Counted from the stretch's first letter, positions 9,133-47,088 are shown. The stretch is 64,000 nt of DNA from Candidatus Omnitrophota bacterium (GCA_020341815.1 CP070837.1:692211-756210); one strand, 5' to 3'. Translations and numbers: made by a program. The notes: a model not told the origin generated them from the sequence alone.

Positions 9133-9369
9133 TCAGGAAGAAGAGAGAACCTCTTTTATCTCATCTACGGTAGGAATCCTGCCGGATAGTCTAACCTTGC
9201 CATCTATAATTACTGCCGGGGTAAACATTACTCCCTTCTCGGCAAACTCGGCTACATTTGTAAGCTTGGTAACTTCAGCATCAATTCCCAGCTCTTTTAT
9301 TGCCTCTTCTACGTTCTTCTCCGTTGCTTTGCATCTGGGGCACCCGGGACCCGCAATCTCAATTTTCAT
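9133..9369 (-). CDS. Small thioredoxin-fold redox-active disulfide protein (CPRC motif)
   Basis: 78 aa. It starts MKIEIAGPGCPRCK and has the ..AVIIDGKV..G thioredoxin-like fold. It is paired with a downstream permease. Confidence 0.65.
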   Translation of the reverse strand: MKIEIAGPGCPRCKATEKNVEEAIKELGIDAEVTKLTNVAEFAEKGVMFTPAVIIDGKVRLSGRIPTVDEIKEVLSSS

Positions 9370-10445: not shown

Positions 10446-10534
10446 TGGTGCCGGAGGTGGGAGTCGAACCCACACGGGGTTTAAGCCCCACTGGATTTTG
10501 AGTCCAGCGCGTCTGCCAATTTCACCACTCCGGC
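10446..10534 (-). tRNA. tRNA-Leu (anticodon CAA)
   Basis: Reverse complement GCCGGAGTGGTGAAATTGGCAGACGCGCTGGACTCAAAATCCAGTGGGGCTTAAACCCCGTGTGGGTTCGACTCCCACCTCCGGCACCA. It has a long variable arm and the anticodon loop is ctCAAaa. Confidence 0.8.
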
Positions 10535-10675
10535 TTAATGAGCACTGAATTTACGAAACACAAGGTGTTTTGTAAATTCATCCTCTTTAGTTTTTCTTCT
10601 TTAGTTTGTGTAAATTAATCCCGATAGCAATGAGAAAATTTATTTATAAATTTTGAAATGTTTTGCTATCGGGAT
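10535..10675 (-). repeat. Copy A of a repeated intergenic module (12-bp-stem palindrome plus conserved AATGAGCACT box)
   Basis: Stem arms atcccgatagca (10618-10629) and tgctatcgggat (10664-10675) flank a conserved interior (agaaaattta..ataaatttt). The box aatgagcact (10537-10546) abuts the tRNA-Leu 5' end. Copy B is at 13586-13696. Confidence 0.5.
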
Positions 10676-10686
10676 AAACTCACAAC

Positions 10687-20416: not shown

Positions 20417-20494
20417 TGGTCGGGACGGCCGGATTCGAACCGGCGACCCCTTGAACCCCATTCAAGTGCGCTAGCCAAACTGCGCCACGTCCCG
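20417..20494 (-). tRNA. tRNA-Pro (anticodon GGG)
   Basis: Reverse complement CGGGACGTGGCGCAGTTTGGCTAGCGCACTTGAATGGGGTTCAAGGGGTCGCCGGTTCGAATCCGGCCGTCCCGACCA. The anticodon loop is atGGGgt. Confidence 0.8.
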
Positions 20495-20596
20495 AACCAA
20501 AATACTTCAACGGTTAAGATTAGTAGCAAACTAATGCCATATGGCACGAGTTTTGCCAAAGTACAAAGCTTAGCAGTATTTTGGTTCGGGACACGT
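20487..20596. repeat. MITE-like 110-bp palindromic element, copy 1 (about 20-bp TIRs); left TIR overlaps the tRNA-Pro 5' end
   Basis: TIRs acgtcccgaaccaaaatact and agtattttggttcgggacacgt. The centre is the palindrome tgccatatggca. A near-identical copy in inverted orientation is at 24102-24211. Confidence 0.6.
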
Positions 20597-20601
20597 CCCC
20601 T

Positions 20602-20877
20602 TTAGAAACGCACCTTCCCAAAACACTCTAAATACTGCCTCAATCTACCGTTGAGATACTTCTTTCCTTTACCACTCTTTAAATACTGCTCTCTCGCAAT
20701 TGCATCTTTTTTCTCTATACAAGCCTCACAATATATCAACTCAAAGGGTATTCTATGCCTTGTGGAAGGTTCTTCACCGGCATTGTGTTCTTTGAGCCGA
20801 CGCTTTAAATCATCTGTAAAGCCGGTATATAACTTATCGTCTTTTTGGCTATGAAGGACATATACATAATAATACAT
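20602..20877 (-). CDS. Small GIY-YIG nuclease-superfamily protein (YhbQ/UPF0213-like)
   Basis: 91 aa. YVYVLHSQKDDKLYTGFTDDLKRRLKEHN is a GIY-YIG motif with a conserved Arg and Glu. The gene is AT-rich and its stop is 5 nt from the MITE-like element. Confidence 0.7.
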   Translation of the reverse strand: MYYYVYVLHSQKDDKLYTGFTDDLKRRLKEHNAGEEPSTRHRIPFELIYCEACIEKKDAIAREQYLKSGKGKKYLNGRLRQYLECFGKVRF

Positions 20878-20950
20878 AGTAACTCAATATATCCAATTAA
20901 CTTTTTATTATACCTGCTTTTGGGGGTGTTGTAAAGAGAGTTTCTTCCCT

Positions 20951-21181
20951 CTATCTTCTTTTGCCGCCGCCGCGCCTTGTGCCGCTACGGCCAGCAGGGC
21001 TCTTTTTGGTTTTACCTCTTTTTTCACCGGCTGTTATATCTCTGTTTTTCTTCTGATGAGAAGGCACCCAGCCCGTCTTGCGCAATGTGCCATAGATATA
21101 TTTTCTTGCCCTCTCTGAGGTAGTAGAGCCAAATTTCTTTTTGGCTTCCTTCTTTAGCTTTCTTTCCAGCTCTTCCGGCAT
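20951..21181 (-). CDS. Hypothetical small highly basic protein
   Basis: 76 aa, Lys/Arg-rich with a C-terminus of ..RRGGGKRR. No known motif recognised. Confidence 0.35.
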   Translation of the reverse strand: MPEELERKLKKEAKKKFGSTTSERARKYIYGTLRKTGWVPSHQKKNRDITAGEKRGKTKKSPAGRSGTRRGGGKRR

Positions 21182-21200
21182 TTTCCCCTCCGCCTCTTTA

Positions 21201-22205
21201 TTATTCTGCCTTTTTTTCTCTGAGCATTAATTCTTCAACGGCAAGCTTGGGGTCTTTGTCCTCGTACAACACCGCATAAACCTCGGAGGTAATAGGCATC
21301 TCTACATTATGCCTCTTGGCCAGAGCAAAGACAGATTGAGTGGTCCTCACCCCCTCGGCAACCATCTCCATTTTAGACAAAATCGCTTTCAGCTTTTTGC
21401 CCCTGCCGATCTGCTCGCCCACCCAGCGATTACGACCGTGAGAGCTGATACAGGTCGTCACTAAATCGCCCAAACCGCTCAAGCCGGAAAAGGTCTCCGG
21501 CCGCGCGCCTTGAGCCTGACCCAGGCGGGCTATTTCTACCAACCCCCGGGTAAGGATGGCCGCTTTGCTATTTGCGCCAAAGCCAAGGCCATCGGAGATG
21601 CCGCAGGCAATAGCAATCACATTCTTTGACGCGCCTCCCAGCTCTACACCTATTATATCGCCTGTTGTATAGACACGAAAGCGCTCGCTCATAAATACAT
21701 CCTGCACTTCTTCCGCAAGTGCAATATCCTCACTGGATACGACGCAGGTAGCAGGAATGCCTCTGGCTACTTCATAAGAGATAGTCGGCCCGGAAAGTAC
21801 CGCTATCCTGCGCTTACCCAAAACATCCTCGACTACTTCGGACATGCGCAAGAGGGTATCGTTTTCGATACCCTTGACTGCGCTCAAAATAATAGCGCCA
21901 GAGGCATTTTCTTCCTTTATCCGGGCGAGCACCCCCCTTAAAAAATGCGAGGGCACCGCCAGGACAATCAAAGCGGCCTCTTCGATAGTTAAACCGATAT
22001 CCGCAGAAAAAGAAATTTCTTTCGGTATCTTGATACCGGGGAGAAACTTGGAATTAATTCTCTTTTTTTCCAAATAACGGATGTAGTCGGCAAAAGGGCC
22101 CCAGACCTCGACCTTATAACCCTTATTATGGAGCATAATCGCCAGGGTCGTGCCCCATCCGCCATCGCCGATAACCGCAACTTTTGCGCCCTTTTTTATA
22201 GCCAT
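21201..22205 (-). CDS. gpsA: NAD(P)H-dependent glycerol-3-phosphate dehydrogenase
   Basis: AKVAVIGDGGWGTTLA Rossmann motif and the GpsA fold. The start is trimmed to MAIKKG (cat at 22203-22205). Confidence 0.9.
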   Translation of the reverse strand: MAIKKGAKVAVIGDGGWGTTLAIMLHNKGYKVEVWGPFADYIRYLEKKRINSKFLPGIKIPKEISFSADIGLTIEEAALIVLAVPSHFLRGVLARIKEENASGAIILSAVKGIENDTLLRMSEVVEDVLGKRRIAVLSGPTISYEVARGIPATCVVSSEDIALAEEVQDVFMSERFRVYTTGDIIGVELGGASKNVIAIACGISDGLGFGANSKAAILTRGLVEIARLGQAQGARPETFSGLSGLGDLVTTCISSHGRNRWVGEQIGRGKKLKAILSKMEMVAEGVRTTQSVFALAKRHNVEMPITSEVYAVLYEDKDPKLAVEELMLREKKAE

Positions 22206-22327
22206 AGTCAGTATGATACTATAATCGATATATGAAGTCAATCAAAAGCTTAAAGACGAAAAAATCTCTGGACGAACCGAAGTTTTTATGTATAATAGTG
22301 TAATAACCTCTTAAAAGGAAGGCGGTT

Positions 22328-23848
22328 ATGCGACAAAAAAGAGAGCTCTGGAAAACGCACTGGGGTATGATTTTTGCTATGATCGGCACCGAGGTGGGCT
22401 TAGGCAATATCTGGCGTTTTCCCTATCTTGTAGGCAAATACGGAGGAGGAGTTTTTCTCATTCCTTATATAGTACTCTTATTGGGCGCGGCCGTCTTTGC
22501 TATGATAGCCGAATGGGTCCTGGGGCGCCATACCCGCAGGGACCCTTTAGGGGCATTTGAGAAGATAAAGTTTCCTTTTGGCCGGGATATCGGCGCCTGG
22601 GGCATCATCGGTCCGTTTTTCCTCTATTCCTACTATATCGTTATTACCGGCTGGGTTATCTTTTTTATCGCCGCCTCCCTCGGCAGGCTCTATTTCGGCC
22701 AGGACAGCGAGCAATTCTTCCTTAACTTTCTGGCCAGCCCCTGGATATTCGCGGTGCACGCACTTGCCATTTTTATTACCAGCGGCATTTTGGCTTTAGG
22801 TGTGCAAAAAGGCATTGAGCGGGCCTGTAAATTTATGATTCCCACCCTTTTTATACTGCTGATAATTGTAGCTATCCGCTCAATCACCCTTCCCGGGGCC
22901 TCATCAGGAATTGAGTTTTATATGCGTCCCCGCTGGGAAGGTCTCTTAAACCCCCAGACCTGGATTGCCGCTTTAGGTCAGGTATTTTTCACTCTGAGTT
23001 TGGGCATGGGCGCCATGCTGATATATGGCTCCTATCTTCGCAATGAATGGGGAATCCCCGCCAATGCCCTGGCCTGCACATTAGGCAATACGGCATCTTC
23101 CATCCTGGCCGGATTTGCAATTTTCCCCGCTGCCTTTGCCCTGGGATTTGGCGCACTGGTCGGCGGCTCCGAAAGCATCGGCCTGACATTTTTTGTCTTG
23201 CCGCGCGTTTTCGAAAAGATGCCTGCGGGCTGGCTCTTCGGAGGCCTTTTCTTTATCCTGCTTAGCTTCGGGGCGCTTTCTTCGGCAATCAGTATACAGG
23301 AACCCAGCATTGCCTGGCTGAAAGAAGAGGTAGGCTGGCGCCGCAAAAAGAGCGCCTTGATTACAGGGATTATTTTATGGGCAATGGGCCTGCCGTTTCT
23401 GCTCAACGGCTTTCTGGTTGGCGGGCTGGGCAAAAAACTGGCCCTGTTGGGGAAAATGGATATAATTATCGGCCAGCTTGCACTTCCTTTATTTGGCCTG
23501 CTTTCTGTAATCGCTGTAGGGCATTTTATGCGCAAGGCCGGCTATCAGGAAATAAATAAAAATGCAAAACACAAAATCGGCACCTGGATCATGCCCTGGA
23601 TTAGATGGGTAGTGCCTATCTTTGTACTGCTTTTATTTTTCTTAAGCCTGATTAAAGTCCTGCAGGATTTGGGCAGAATCCCTCAGATTCTTCCCGTCGT
23701 AACTATGCCCGAGTTTCAACCCATAGGGATAACCCGCTCAACGATAGCGATGATAATAACAATCTGCACTATCATCTGGGGCGGTTTCGTTTTTATGACT
23801 TACAGGGTAATTACTACGGAAAAAGAAAAAGCAAGGAATAAAAAATAA
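22328..23848 (+). CDS. Sodium-dependent transporter, neurotransmitter:sodium symporter (SNF/NSS) family
   Basis: 506 aa. ..GLGNIWRFPYLVGKYGGG.. signature and 11-12 TM helices. Confidence 0.85.
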   Translation: MRQKRELWKTHWGMIFAMIGTEVGLGNIWRFPYLVGKYGGGVFLIPYIVLLLGAAVFAMIAEWVLGRHTRRDPLGAFEKIKFPFGRDIGAWGIIGPFFLYSYYIVITGWVIFFIAASLGRLYFGQDSEQFFLNFLASPWIFAVHALAIFITSGILALGVQKGIERACKFMIPTLFILLIIVAIRSITLPGASSGIEFYMRPRWEGLLNPQTWIAALGQVFFTLSLGMGAMLIYGSYLRNEWGIPANALACTLGNTASSILAGFAIFPAAFALGFGALVGGSESIGLTFFVLPRVFEKMPAGWLFGGLFFILLSFGALSSAISIQEPSIAWLKEEVGWRRKKSALITGIILWAMGLPFLLNGFLVGGLGKKLALLGKMDIIIGQLALPLFGLLSVIAVGHFMRKAGYQEINKNAKHKIGTWIMPWIRWVVPIFVLLLFFLSLIKVLQDLGRIPQILPVVTMPEFQPIGITRSTIAMIITICTIIWGGFVFMTYRVITTEKEKARNKK

Positions 23849-24101
23849 TGATCCCCGCCCTTCCAAAACATACGTTTGGTATAAGAGATATGGGTAAGGA
23901 TAATTCAACCAGATTAAAATATAGATTTAGACCTGACATTGCGAAGAAAGGAAGGGCGGGGTGAACCTCTCTGTTCTGGCTAATTCTAAATTCGGCTGGA
24001 TATTTATCTGGTCGGAAATTATCCTGGTATATCTGCTATTCCTCTGGTTTCACAGAATAGTGGAAAGAAAGCGCAGGTCTAAATAAGGCTTATTGTTTTC
24101 G

Positions 24102-24211
24102 ACGTGCCCCGAACCAAAATACTACTAAGTTTTGTATTTTGGCAAAACTCGTGCCATATGGCATTAGTTTGCTACTAATCTCAACTGTTGAAGTATTTTG
24201 GTTCGGGGCGT
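24102..24211. repeat. MITE-like 110-bp palindromic element, copy 2 (inverted relative to copy 1); overlaps the 3' end of queF
   Basis: TIRs acgtgccccgaaccaaaatact and agtattttggttcggggcgt. The interior is about 90% identical to the reverse complement of copy 1. Confidence 0.6.
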
Positions 24212-24585
24212 GGATACCTCGCCAGAACCTGAGTCTTTATCCCGCCACGGGGACTAAACTCGCCATGCACCTCAAGCCATTTTGGCCGGCAGGCGCCTGC
24301 TGCATCGTCTAAAATCCGATTTACCGCGTTTTCATAAAAGATGCCTAAATTCCTAAAGGCAAGTAAATAGAATTTCAAAGACTTAAGCTCCAGGCAAAGC
24401 TTATTGGGAACGTAGCGAATGGTAATCACGCCGAAATCGGGAAGCTGGGTCTTCGGGCAAATAGAGGTGAACTCAGGGACAGAAATGACAATCTCATAAT
24501 TTTTATATTGGCTGGGAAAACAATCGATGCGGGGAAGCTTGGCTTTTATGCCTGCTTGGGCGTGTTTTTTCGTATAACCTTTCAT
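24181..24585 (-). CDS. queF: NADPH-dependent 7-cyano-7-deazaguanine (preQ0) reductase, type I
   Basis: 134 aa. ..EFTSICPKTQLPDFG.. is the Cys/QueF motif of the T-fold. The last 9 codons are encoded inside the MITE-like element. Confidence 0.8.
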   Translation of the reverse strand: MKGYTKKHAQAGIKAKLPRIDCFPSQYKNYEIVISVPEFTSICPKTQLPDFGVITIRYVPNKLCLELKSLKFYLLAFRNLGIFYENAVNRILDDAAGACRPKWLEVHGEFSPRGGIKTQVLARYPRPEPKYFNS

Positions 24586-47003: not shown

Positions 47004-47088
47004 TTATTACTGAAATCACTGAAACTATTACACTGAAATCACTGAGATCTTATTCAGTGCTTTCAGTAATAATTCAGTGCTCTCAGTG
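47004..47088. promoter_or_regulatory. Intergenic palindrome with an array of CACTGA/TCAGTG hexamers (candidate operator/promoter region upstream of the 45062-46999 gene)
   Basis: ttattactgaaatcactgaaa (47004-47024) pairs with ttcagtgctttcagtaataa (47053-47072). There are at least 6 copies of CACTGA or its complement in 85 nt. Confidence 0.35.

Follow-up and report, generated by a model that had tools for sequence, protein, structure and literature searches.

A palindromic DNA element of 102 bp occurs twice, in inverted orientation, in a 64,000-nucleotide stretch from a Candidatus Omnitrophota bacterium (GCA_020341815.1, CP070837.1:692211-756210; the whole stretch is hereafter called the window). 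One copy lies at the 5' end of the proline tRNA gene tRNA-Pro(GGG) (copy 1) and the other at the 3' end of queF (copy 2), and a third copy forms helix P3 of the RNase P RNA gene (rnpB) in an uncultured member of the Planctomycetia. We consider these repeats to be, probably, a rare and horizontally spread non-autonomous insertion element resembling MITEs, the miniature transposable elements with inverted repeats. As such, the element would be a new low-copy member of a familiar type with unusual landing sites, and a well-resolved, somewhat unusual example rather than a new mechanism. Empty sites were found in relatives for all three loci: queF, tRNA-Pro, and a short P3.

A repeat search of the window returned an inverted pair of arms of 113 nt (20485-20597 and 24101-24213) that are 94% complementary and separated by a 3503-nt spacer. 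The inverted palindromic pair described in the original prediction is therefore real, with an identity of 94% and not the approximately 90% given there. When the 102-nt cores are aligned, copy 1 and copy 2 differ at seven positions (93% identity). The terminal inverted repeats (TIRs) are 17 bp long and perfect in all three copies (17-18 bp and perfect in both window copies), the centre of each window copy is the palindrome TGCCATATGGCA, and approximately 35 of 51 positions are palindromic across the element. Either strand of each window copy is predicted to fold into a single long hairpin of -46 to -53 kcal/mol (z-scores between -7 and -9), and none of 200 shuffled sequences folded as well. 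The rnpB copy is the best paired of the three (-54.7 kcal/mol, z = -11). Thirty-seven consensus pairs are predicted over the three copies, among which a single compensatory change was identified: at the terminal pair, copy 1 has U-A and the other two copies C-G. A claim of selection on structure would need more than three sequences. This terminal change to U-A in copy 1 gives rise to A5 of tRNA-Pro.

The 16-nt TIR occurs four times in the 64-kb window (0.55 expected), always within copies 1 and 2. Open frames running through the 102-bp core are not conserved as proteins, and the element is short and non-coding in the manner of MITEs. With its TIRs, its 4-bp target duplication, and its presence/absence polymorphism, it has the features on which the earlier proposal of a MITE-like nature is borne out. 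An Rfam search with the element returned only sub-threshold matches to generic hairpins (miRNA precursors) and no family, and no T-run terminator follows copy 1 or copy 2. Independent support comes from Logan contigs (SRR14739666), in which two of the four element-flank junctions were recovered.

The extent of the inserted unit was established at queF by comparison with a close relative (run SRR24270831, 93%-97% DNA identity; loci L007, L010, and L042). A more distant relative was also used (ERZ25073496; QueF 81% and homoserine dehydrogenase, Hom, 83% identity; loci L008 and L011). The queF gene of the close relative has no copy 2, encodes 129 aa, and ends in YPRRKL*; it carries its own, different insertion at this spot, and removal of that insertion in silico yields a native tail of YPRRKR*. 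When positions 24107-24208 and one CGTG are removed from the window, the remaining sequence aligns without gaps to the reconstructed site of the relative, with 175 identities in 187 positions (78/80 ahead of the junction and 97/107 beyond it), and the QueF open reading frame (ORF) becomes 129 aa long, ending in YPRRKQ*. Because the excision aligns cleanly, the inserted unit is exactly the 102-nt core together with a 4-bp CGTG duplication. The orthologs of QueF have 127-131 aa and end in ARYPR(P/R)xx, and the minus strand of copy 2 encodes the tail PEPKYFNS with its stop codon at 24181-24183. The native QueF tail RKQ* (RKR* in the relative) is replaced by PEPKYFNS*, so that the replacement of the C-terminus proposed at the outset is confirmed by both the ortholog comparison and the empty site. 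A likeness of this tail to Bacillus QueF was considered as a sign that the tail is native and was rejected, as the close orthologs and the empty site contradict it. Copy 2 would also set a strong hairpin between the genes for QueF and the SNF transporter, which converge.

The insertion that the close relative carries at the end of queF (L007 10367-10453 and L042 1-81) is at least approximately 110 nt long. It contains a palindrome with GTGACAC (ATGGTGACACATAC...GTATGTGTCACCAT) and repeats of GTGTCACCATTATTT, and on either side of it stands the queF end as a direct repeat of 17 nt, AGGTATCCCCGTCGCAA. The 14-nt arm sequence of its palindrome is absent from the window. The convergent intergenic region between queF and SNF looks like an insertion hot spot.

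At tRNA-Pro, the element lies inside the gene. Read on the tRNA strand, the layout is TAA AG GGGGA-CGTG-(TCCCGAACC...GGTTCGGGA)-CGTG-GCGCAG, and the two CGTG copies read CACG on the plus strand (20486-20489 and 20592-20595). Nucleotides 1-5 of the tRNA (CGGGA) are the final five bases of the element (20494-20490), and nucleotides 6-9 are the duplicated CGTG. The old 5' end of the tRNA is displaced by 106 nt upstream, where the remnant GGGGACGTG matches tRNA nucleotides 1-9 (CGGGACGTG) at eight of nine positions. Since the element-free ortholog in L011 starts with CGGGACGTGGCGCAG, the window remnant is what is left of the original 5' end, displaced and with a single substitution. The Rfam tRNA model scores the window tRNA-Pro at 60.7 bits compared with 59.4 for the element-free ortholog. 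The likeness of the element end to nucleotides 1-5 of tRNA-Pro makes the insertion viable, and most simply this likeness reflects survivorship rather than tRNA targeting. In the close relative (L042), copy 1 is present at the same site with identical sequence; one unitig spans the GIY-YIG gene, copy 1, and the tRNA, and the assembly graph of that relative contains a single copy.

Both pre-insertion sites read GA/CGTG/G (GGGGACGTGGCGC in the tRNA gene and TTCGACGTGGATA in queF), and the 4-bp direct repeat CGTG stands on both sides of both window copies. The same 7-mer is unlikely to occur at two independent sites by chance (~4^-7), and the 64 kb contain only two unoccupied GACGTGG sites. These results alter what had been said of the relation to tRNA. 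The original prediction let the repeat overlap the first 7 nt of tRNA-Pro and suggested a tRNA-end-derived or tRNA-targeting element. The overlap itself stands and extends over nucleotides 1-10, and the suggestion holds in part: the match at copy 1 falls as an independent resemblance, given that the element lies inside the gene. At copy 2, the resemblance seen in CGGGGCGTGG consists of the element end and the same CGTG target; this target happens to overlap conserved QueF codons. Likewise, CCACGCCCC, which had been taken as repeat, is partly native QueF coding sequence (Pro-Arg) and partly element end. The target common to both copies is GACGTGG and not tRNA as such. Not part of the original prediction were the exact boundaries, the target duplication, the different times of the two insertions, and the copy that forms P3 in another lineage.

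The two window copies differ in age and in source. Because the close relative has copy 1 without copy 2, copy 1 is the older insertion and copy 2 the younger. At positions where they differ, the Planctomycetia copy has the copy 2 state at core positions 1, 76, 80, and 102 and the copy 1 state at 18 and 24. An origin of copy 2 from copy 1 by local inverted duplication was considered and rejected, as this pattern of variants contradicts it. Copy 1 is not the parent of copy 2, and a further master copy therefore exists or existed. The uninterrupted unitig of the relative and the breaks of Logan contigs in the source sample are together compatible with very few copies per genome. These breaks fall approximately k-1 nt past the last difference between copy 1 and copy 2 (checked exactly for L001) or inside the tRNA; they were weighed as proof of many copies and rejected as such, since no further copies are needed to produce them.

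The only good promoter upstream of tRNA-Pro lies before the GIY-YIG gene (TTTACA-17-TATAAT at 20935-20907), and the tRNA is thus probably co-transcribed behind GIY-YIG, the transcript running across a hairpin of high stability. The 192-nt precursor is predicted to fold with tRNA nucleotides 1-6 paired within the hairpin and with the remnant paired to the 3' acceptor strand. According to this fold, the precursor would have two competing acceptor stems, and the hairpin would compete with the acceptor stem or sit within it.

Several further observations concern the surroundings of tRNA-Pro. Within 20596-20606, the stop codon of the GIY-YIG gene (91 aa) lies 2 nt upstream of the displaced tRNA-Pro 5' end, and the window tRNA-Pro is without the promoter module found in relatives. 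The pair of genes for GIY-YIG and the basic protein appears to have been placed directly in front of tRNA-Pro. In the more distant relative, gpsA and tRNA-Pro are located on separate contigs (L008 and L011) with other neighbours, which marks a break of synteny at the 5' side of the tRNA. A fragment resembling the 5' end of tRNA-Pro, CGGAGCGTGGCGCAGT (14/16), is found at 9128-9145 of L011, approximately 165 nt upstream of the intact tRNA (9295-9369), and the promoter region of tRNA-Pro lies between the two; this fragment may have been left behind by a further insertion or duplication at that tRNA 5' end. Between 20250 and 21500, a stretch with tRNA-Pro, the element, GIY-YIG, the 76-aa gene, and the 3' end of gpsA, the window and L042 are 98%-100% identical, compared with approximately 92%-97% elsewhere, and this stretch may be a recent recombination tract.

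A gapped pattern of two TIRs spaced 53-83 nt apart matched one contig in 185,579 species genomes, from a metagenome-assembled genome (MAG) named 'uncultured Planctomycetia bacterium' (L002). A 20-mer that ran past the TIR into the interior of the element was used to scan 241 million metagenome records and returned the same organism (L004) and one chance match. Neither scan reliably detects a full-length insertion sequence (IS). The copy in L002 is 84%-86% identical to the window copies and lies in a full-length class A RNase P RNA (RF00010, RNaseP_bact_a; 204 bits, model positions 1-367) with an excess of 82 nt in P3. More specifically, the element is the entire P3: the G of J2/3 is followed by CCCCGAACC, 82 nt, and GGUUCGGGG, and then by AGGAAAGUCC of P4. 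The rnpB gene stands beside an RNase HI gene here and in four relatives (L013, L015, L016, and L041; RNase HI at least 90% identical, one 90% cluster). Those four relatives have an ordinary 22-nt P3, CAG(T/C)CCCGAAGGTTCGGGGTTG, and the long P3 is therefore derived. The native short P3 (CAGCCCCGAAGGTTCGGGGTTG) shares CCCCGAA and GGTTCGGGG (7 and 9 nt) with the element ends. This sharing exceeds chance and points to one of two histories, capture of the element via end homology or its descent from such a P3.

Beyond P3, the rnpB of L002 (7060-7449) is without approximately 50 nt in the specificity-domain region when compared with L013 2152-2502 (alignment columns ~239-288). It has an extra hairpin of approximately 21 nt before the 3' P1 strand, which is also present in L015 and absent from L013 and L016.

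Other searches returned no additional copies. An nhmmer profile run over the window and all fetched loci detected no diverged copies, plasmids and phages gave no match to the element, and viral contigs gave 24 isolated 16-mer matches, each of them at chance level according to nhmmer. An alignment of the element's translated peptides identified no spurious-ORF copies in a database of 5.8 billion proteins. The window has its two copies within 64 kb. Rfam identified no RNase P RNA in the window and no rnpB in the fetched stretches of the Omnitrophota relatives, and no genes common to the Planctomycetia MAG and the window were found. Literature on MITEs in rnpB, planctomycete RNase P helix expansions, and Omnitrophota repeats yielded nothing relevant.

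If the repeats are a MITE-like element, the element would insert at GA/CGTG/G and leave CGTG on both sides, and an enzyme supplied in trans would presumably recognise its inverted ends. Three events are shown. The first is the older insertion in tRNA-Pro(GGG), between nucleotides 5 and 10, which survived since CGGGA of the element and the duplicated CGTG rebuild nucleotides 1-9. The second is the younger insertion into the final codons of queF; it came from another master copy and changed RKQ* to PEPKYFNS*. The third is the replacement of the 22-nt P3 in the Planctomycetia MAG, where the ends of the native P3 are identical to those of the element. No host function of the element need be assumed.

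Certain results weigh against this explanation. The rnpB copy is a scar-free, exact replacement of P3 with no CGTG duplication, which is not expected of simple transposition, and the identity between the ends of the native P3 and those of the element is not explained by a plain MITE model. The flanking CGTG could itself arise by microhomology-mediated copying. Copy number looks low, with one copy in the assembly graph of the close relative, and the family is very rare, as the exact-pattern scans of 185,579 genomes and 241 million metagenome records found it in one other organism. Those scans detected no transposase or autonomous element with these TIRs, and no further TIR is present in the window.

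It is possible that no dedicated transposase is involved and that the hairpin is passed on by illegitimate recombination or by template switching at microhomologies, as is typical for palindromes at replication forks. A nascent strand that jumped to a donor copy at GACGTG and came back at CGTGG would mimic a 4-bp target duplication, and P3 would be reached by the same process via the 7- and 9-nt end homology with the native P3. The two window copies do have 6 nt (GACGTG) and 5 nt (CGTGG) of flank in common, the rnpB replacement is scar-free and bounded by sequence common with the native P3, copies are very few, the scans found no partner IS, and the terminal T-A and C-G pairs co-vary as expected of quasi-palindrome correction. 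Nevertheless, we regard this explanation as unlikely. Copy 2 does not come from copy 1, which excludes a local fork switch and calls for a distant or foreign donor, and the first donor would still need CGTG flanks. Two independent events at one 7-nt site, together with 17-bp ends perfectly conserved across two phyla, fit recognition by an enzyme better.

A more speculative thought, and a rather improbable one, is that the hairpin mimics the stems of essential structured RNAs, either because it was born as an expanded P3 of an RNase P RNA gene and became mobile later, or because its G/C-rich ends (CCCCG...CGGGG) evolved to replace or rebuild RNA helices, here P3 and the 5' acceptor strand of tRNA-Pro, with the host left alive. 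If this were true, the element would stand for a class of mobile DNA with ends that serve at the same time as functional nucleotides in ribozymes and tRNAs, which would amount to a new survival strategy; with evolved ends, RNA genes would be the safe havens on which its spread across phyla relies.

The related proposal that the hairpin originated as an expanded P3 of an RNase P RNA gene and was copied from there, or is retained next to RNA genes for a function in RNA (processing, RNase III cleavage, or as a platform for an RNase P-associated protein), appears decidedly improbable to us. It would account for the Planctomycetia element being exactly P3 from the first to the last base pair, for the sequences CCCCGAA and GGTTCGGGG shared with the native short P3, for the same strand being the sense strand of an RNA gene in two of the three copies, and for the rnpB copy being the best paired, with one compensatory terminal pair. 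Against it, the long P3 is derived, and its lineage acquired it. The hosts belong to different phyla, yet the copies are 84%-86% identical, which suggests transfer rather than inheritance, and the duplications around the window copies are of the kind left by DNA insertion. Copy 2 runs antisense to queF, and there is no covariation beyond one pair in three sequences.

The original prediction also held that the inverted pair could mediate inversion of the 3.5-kb block between the copies. As 113-bp inverted repeats of 94% identity set 3.5 kb apart, the copies are a possible substrate for homologous recombination, and recombination between them remains conceivable, but it is not what created or defines the feature. 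Each copy keeps both halves of its original target contiguous, with the tRNA remnant beside copy 1 and the old queF tail beside copy 2, and no recombinase gene was identified among the four proteins of the block. The order and orientation of the convergent queF and SNF genes and of gpsA are the same in the element-free relative L008. Only the parental orientation was seen, which does not agree with an invertible segment. Moreover, the close relative has one copy only, and the two copies arrived at different times. We therefore consider it very improbable that the pair is the working part of an invertible switch, and the block genes are bystanders in their ancestral orientation relative to queF.

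An ancient terminator or leader hairpin native to these loci would suit convergent-gene and pre-tRNA positions, where hairpins are common, but its probability is negligible in view of the empty sites at all three loci and the missing T-run signature.

Single-hairpin MITEs of approximately 100-150 bp are known as Correia or NEMIS elements in Neisseria, as ERIC or IRU in enterobacteria, and as RUP in Streptococcus pneumoniae. In form, the present element comes closest to them: it resembles them in its size, long TIRs, folding as one whole hairpin, absence of an ORF, short duplication, insertion next to or in genes, co-transcription with neighbours, and presence/absence polymorphism. However, these families duplicate TA and occur in tens to hundreds of copies, whereas the element duplicates CGTG within GACGTGG and was seen in one or two copies per genome. 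The comparison with these families is one of features, not of sequence.

Rickettsia palindromic repeats (RPE) are inserted in-frame in protein-coding genes and share with the element the tolerance of a palindromic selfish sequence in genes whose function the insertion preserves, here the QueF tail, the tRNA 5' end, and P3; in this respect they are its nearest counterpart. They are abundant within one genus, whereas the element is sporadic over two phyla and supplies functional tRNA nucleotides. Insertions of repeats in structured RNA are known from helix P12 of cyanobacterial RNase P RNA, which can hold short tandem repeats, and from the intervening sequences of 23S rRNA helices. In these cases, as in the Planctomycetia rnpB, an essential RNA accommodates extra hairpin DNA at the end of one of its peripheral helices, and the rnpB still scores as a full class A RNA; the difference is that here a whole P3 is replaced by a sequence that is also found, in another phylum, as a discrete insertion with target duplications. 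Integrative elements that target tRNA genes also bring in DNA that restores the tRNA end and leave the displaced remnant as a direct repeat. In contrast, only 5 nt of the element and 4 bp of target are involved here, at the 5' end and not the usual 3' end, in a 102-bp element with no integrase, and its second insertion site is not a tRNA.

REP/RAYT repeats are imperfect palindromes of 20-40 nt with a GTAG-type head that are usually clustered and make no target duplication. The element differs from them in its 102 nt, long TIRs, duplication, and isolated copies. Members of IS200/IS605 have subterminal hairpins and no TIRs, insert 3' of a fixed tetra- or pentanucleotide, and make no duplication; the element has long perfect TIRs and no separate subterminal hairpins, and its two CGTG flanks might be read as a target plus a cleavage site borne by the element.

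The element offers a case, documented with empty sites, of a small palindromic sequence tolerated in three kinds of essential or conserved gene, for a tRNA, a ribozyme, and an enzyme, in each of which its own sequence takes functional positions. Selfish hairpins can thereby remodel RNA genes, as P3 has become approximately five-fold longer, and tRNA genes can survive insertion. For annotation, the QueF tail, the tRNA 5' end, and the rnpB helix are misread unless the element is recognised, and the repeat breaks short-read assemblies.

A sigma-54-like motif is contained in each window copy. We take the sigma-54 core to be TGGCACG-N4-TTGC, which TGGCACGAGTTTTGC matches. The two matches are the only ones in the window; both run antisense to their neighbouring genes and face the inside of the 3.5-kb block. 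In the rnpB copy the motif is degenerate, with only GG-N10-GC kept.

Table 1. Positions of the two element copies, their target genes, and the block between them (window coordinates).
Feature	Position	Strand	Remarks
tRNA-Pro(GGG), intact	20417-20494	-	ARAGORN; Rfam tRNA model
Right-hand CGTG of copy 1 duplication	20486-20489	-	tRNA-Pro nt 6-9
Copy 1 core, 102 bp	20490-20591	-	On the tRNA strand: TCCCGAACCAAAATACT...AGTATTTTGGTTCGGGA; boundaries set by the empty site of copy 2 and by the rnpB copy
Left-hand CGTG (20592-20595) and displaced tRNA-Pro 5' end	20592-20600	-	Reads GGGGACGTG
Inter-copy block	20602-23848		Four genes, listed below
GIY-YIG	20602-20877	-	
76-aa basic protein	20951-21181	-	
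gpsA	21201-22241	-	
SNF transporter	22328-23848	+	
Stranded original queF 3' end	24090-24106	-	CACGTCGAAAACAATAA (Arg-Arg-Lys-Gln-stop); old stop TAA 24090-24092
Left CGTG of copy 2	24103-24106	+	
Copy 2 core, 102 bp	24107-24208	+	CCCCGAACC...GGTTCGGGG; absent from the orthologous site of the close relative
Right CGTG of copy 2	24209-24212	+	Inside conserved QueF codons Pro-Arg
queF, 134 aa	24181-24585	-	Pfam QueF match; last 8 codons and stop element-encoded
Sigma-54-like motif TGGCACGAGTTTTGC, copy 1	20542-20556	+	Motif search; significance uncertain
Sigma-54-like motif TGGCACGAGTTTTGC, copy 2	24142-24156	-	Motif search; significance uncertain

Elsewhere in the window, the region upstream of tRNA-Leu(CAA) (10446-10534, minus strand) is approximately 85 nt longer (10536-10684) than its counterpart in the close relative (L010 9698-9752), and a hairpin whose arms are 22 nt long (10609-10630 and 10663-10684) is part of the additional sequence. 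The regions upstream of tRNA-Leu in the window and of tRNA-Pro in L011 have CTAAAGAAG repeats in common, and they also share a promoter-like module, TTTAC(A/G)-N16-17-TAAATT, that ends in GCTCATTAA. Finally, an isolated hairpin at 47004-47072 has 20-nt arms that are 95% complementary and a 29-nt spacer, and its sequence is unrelated to the element.

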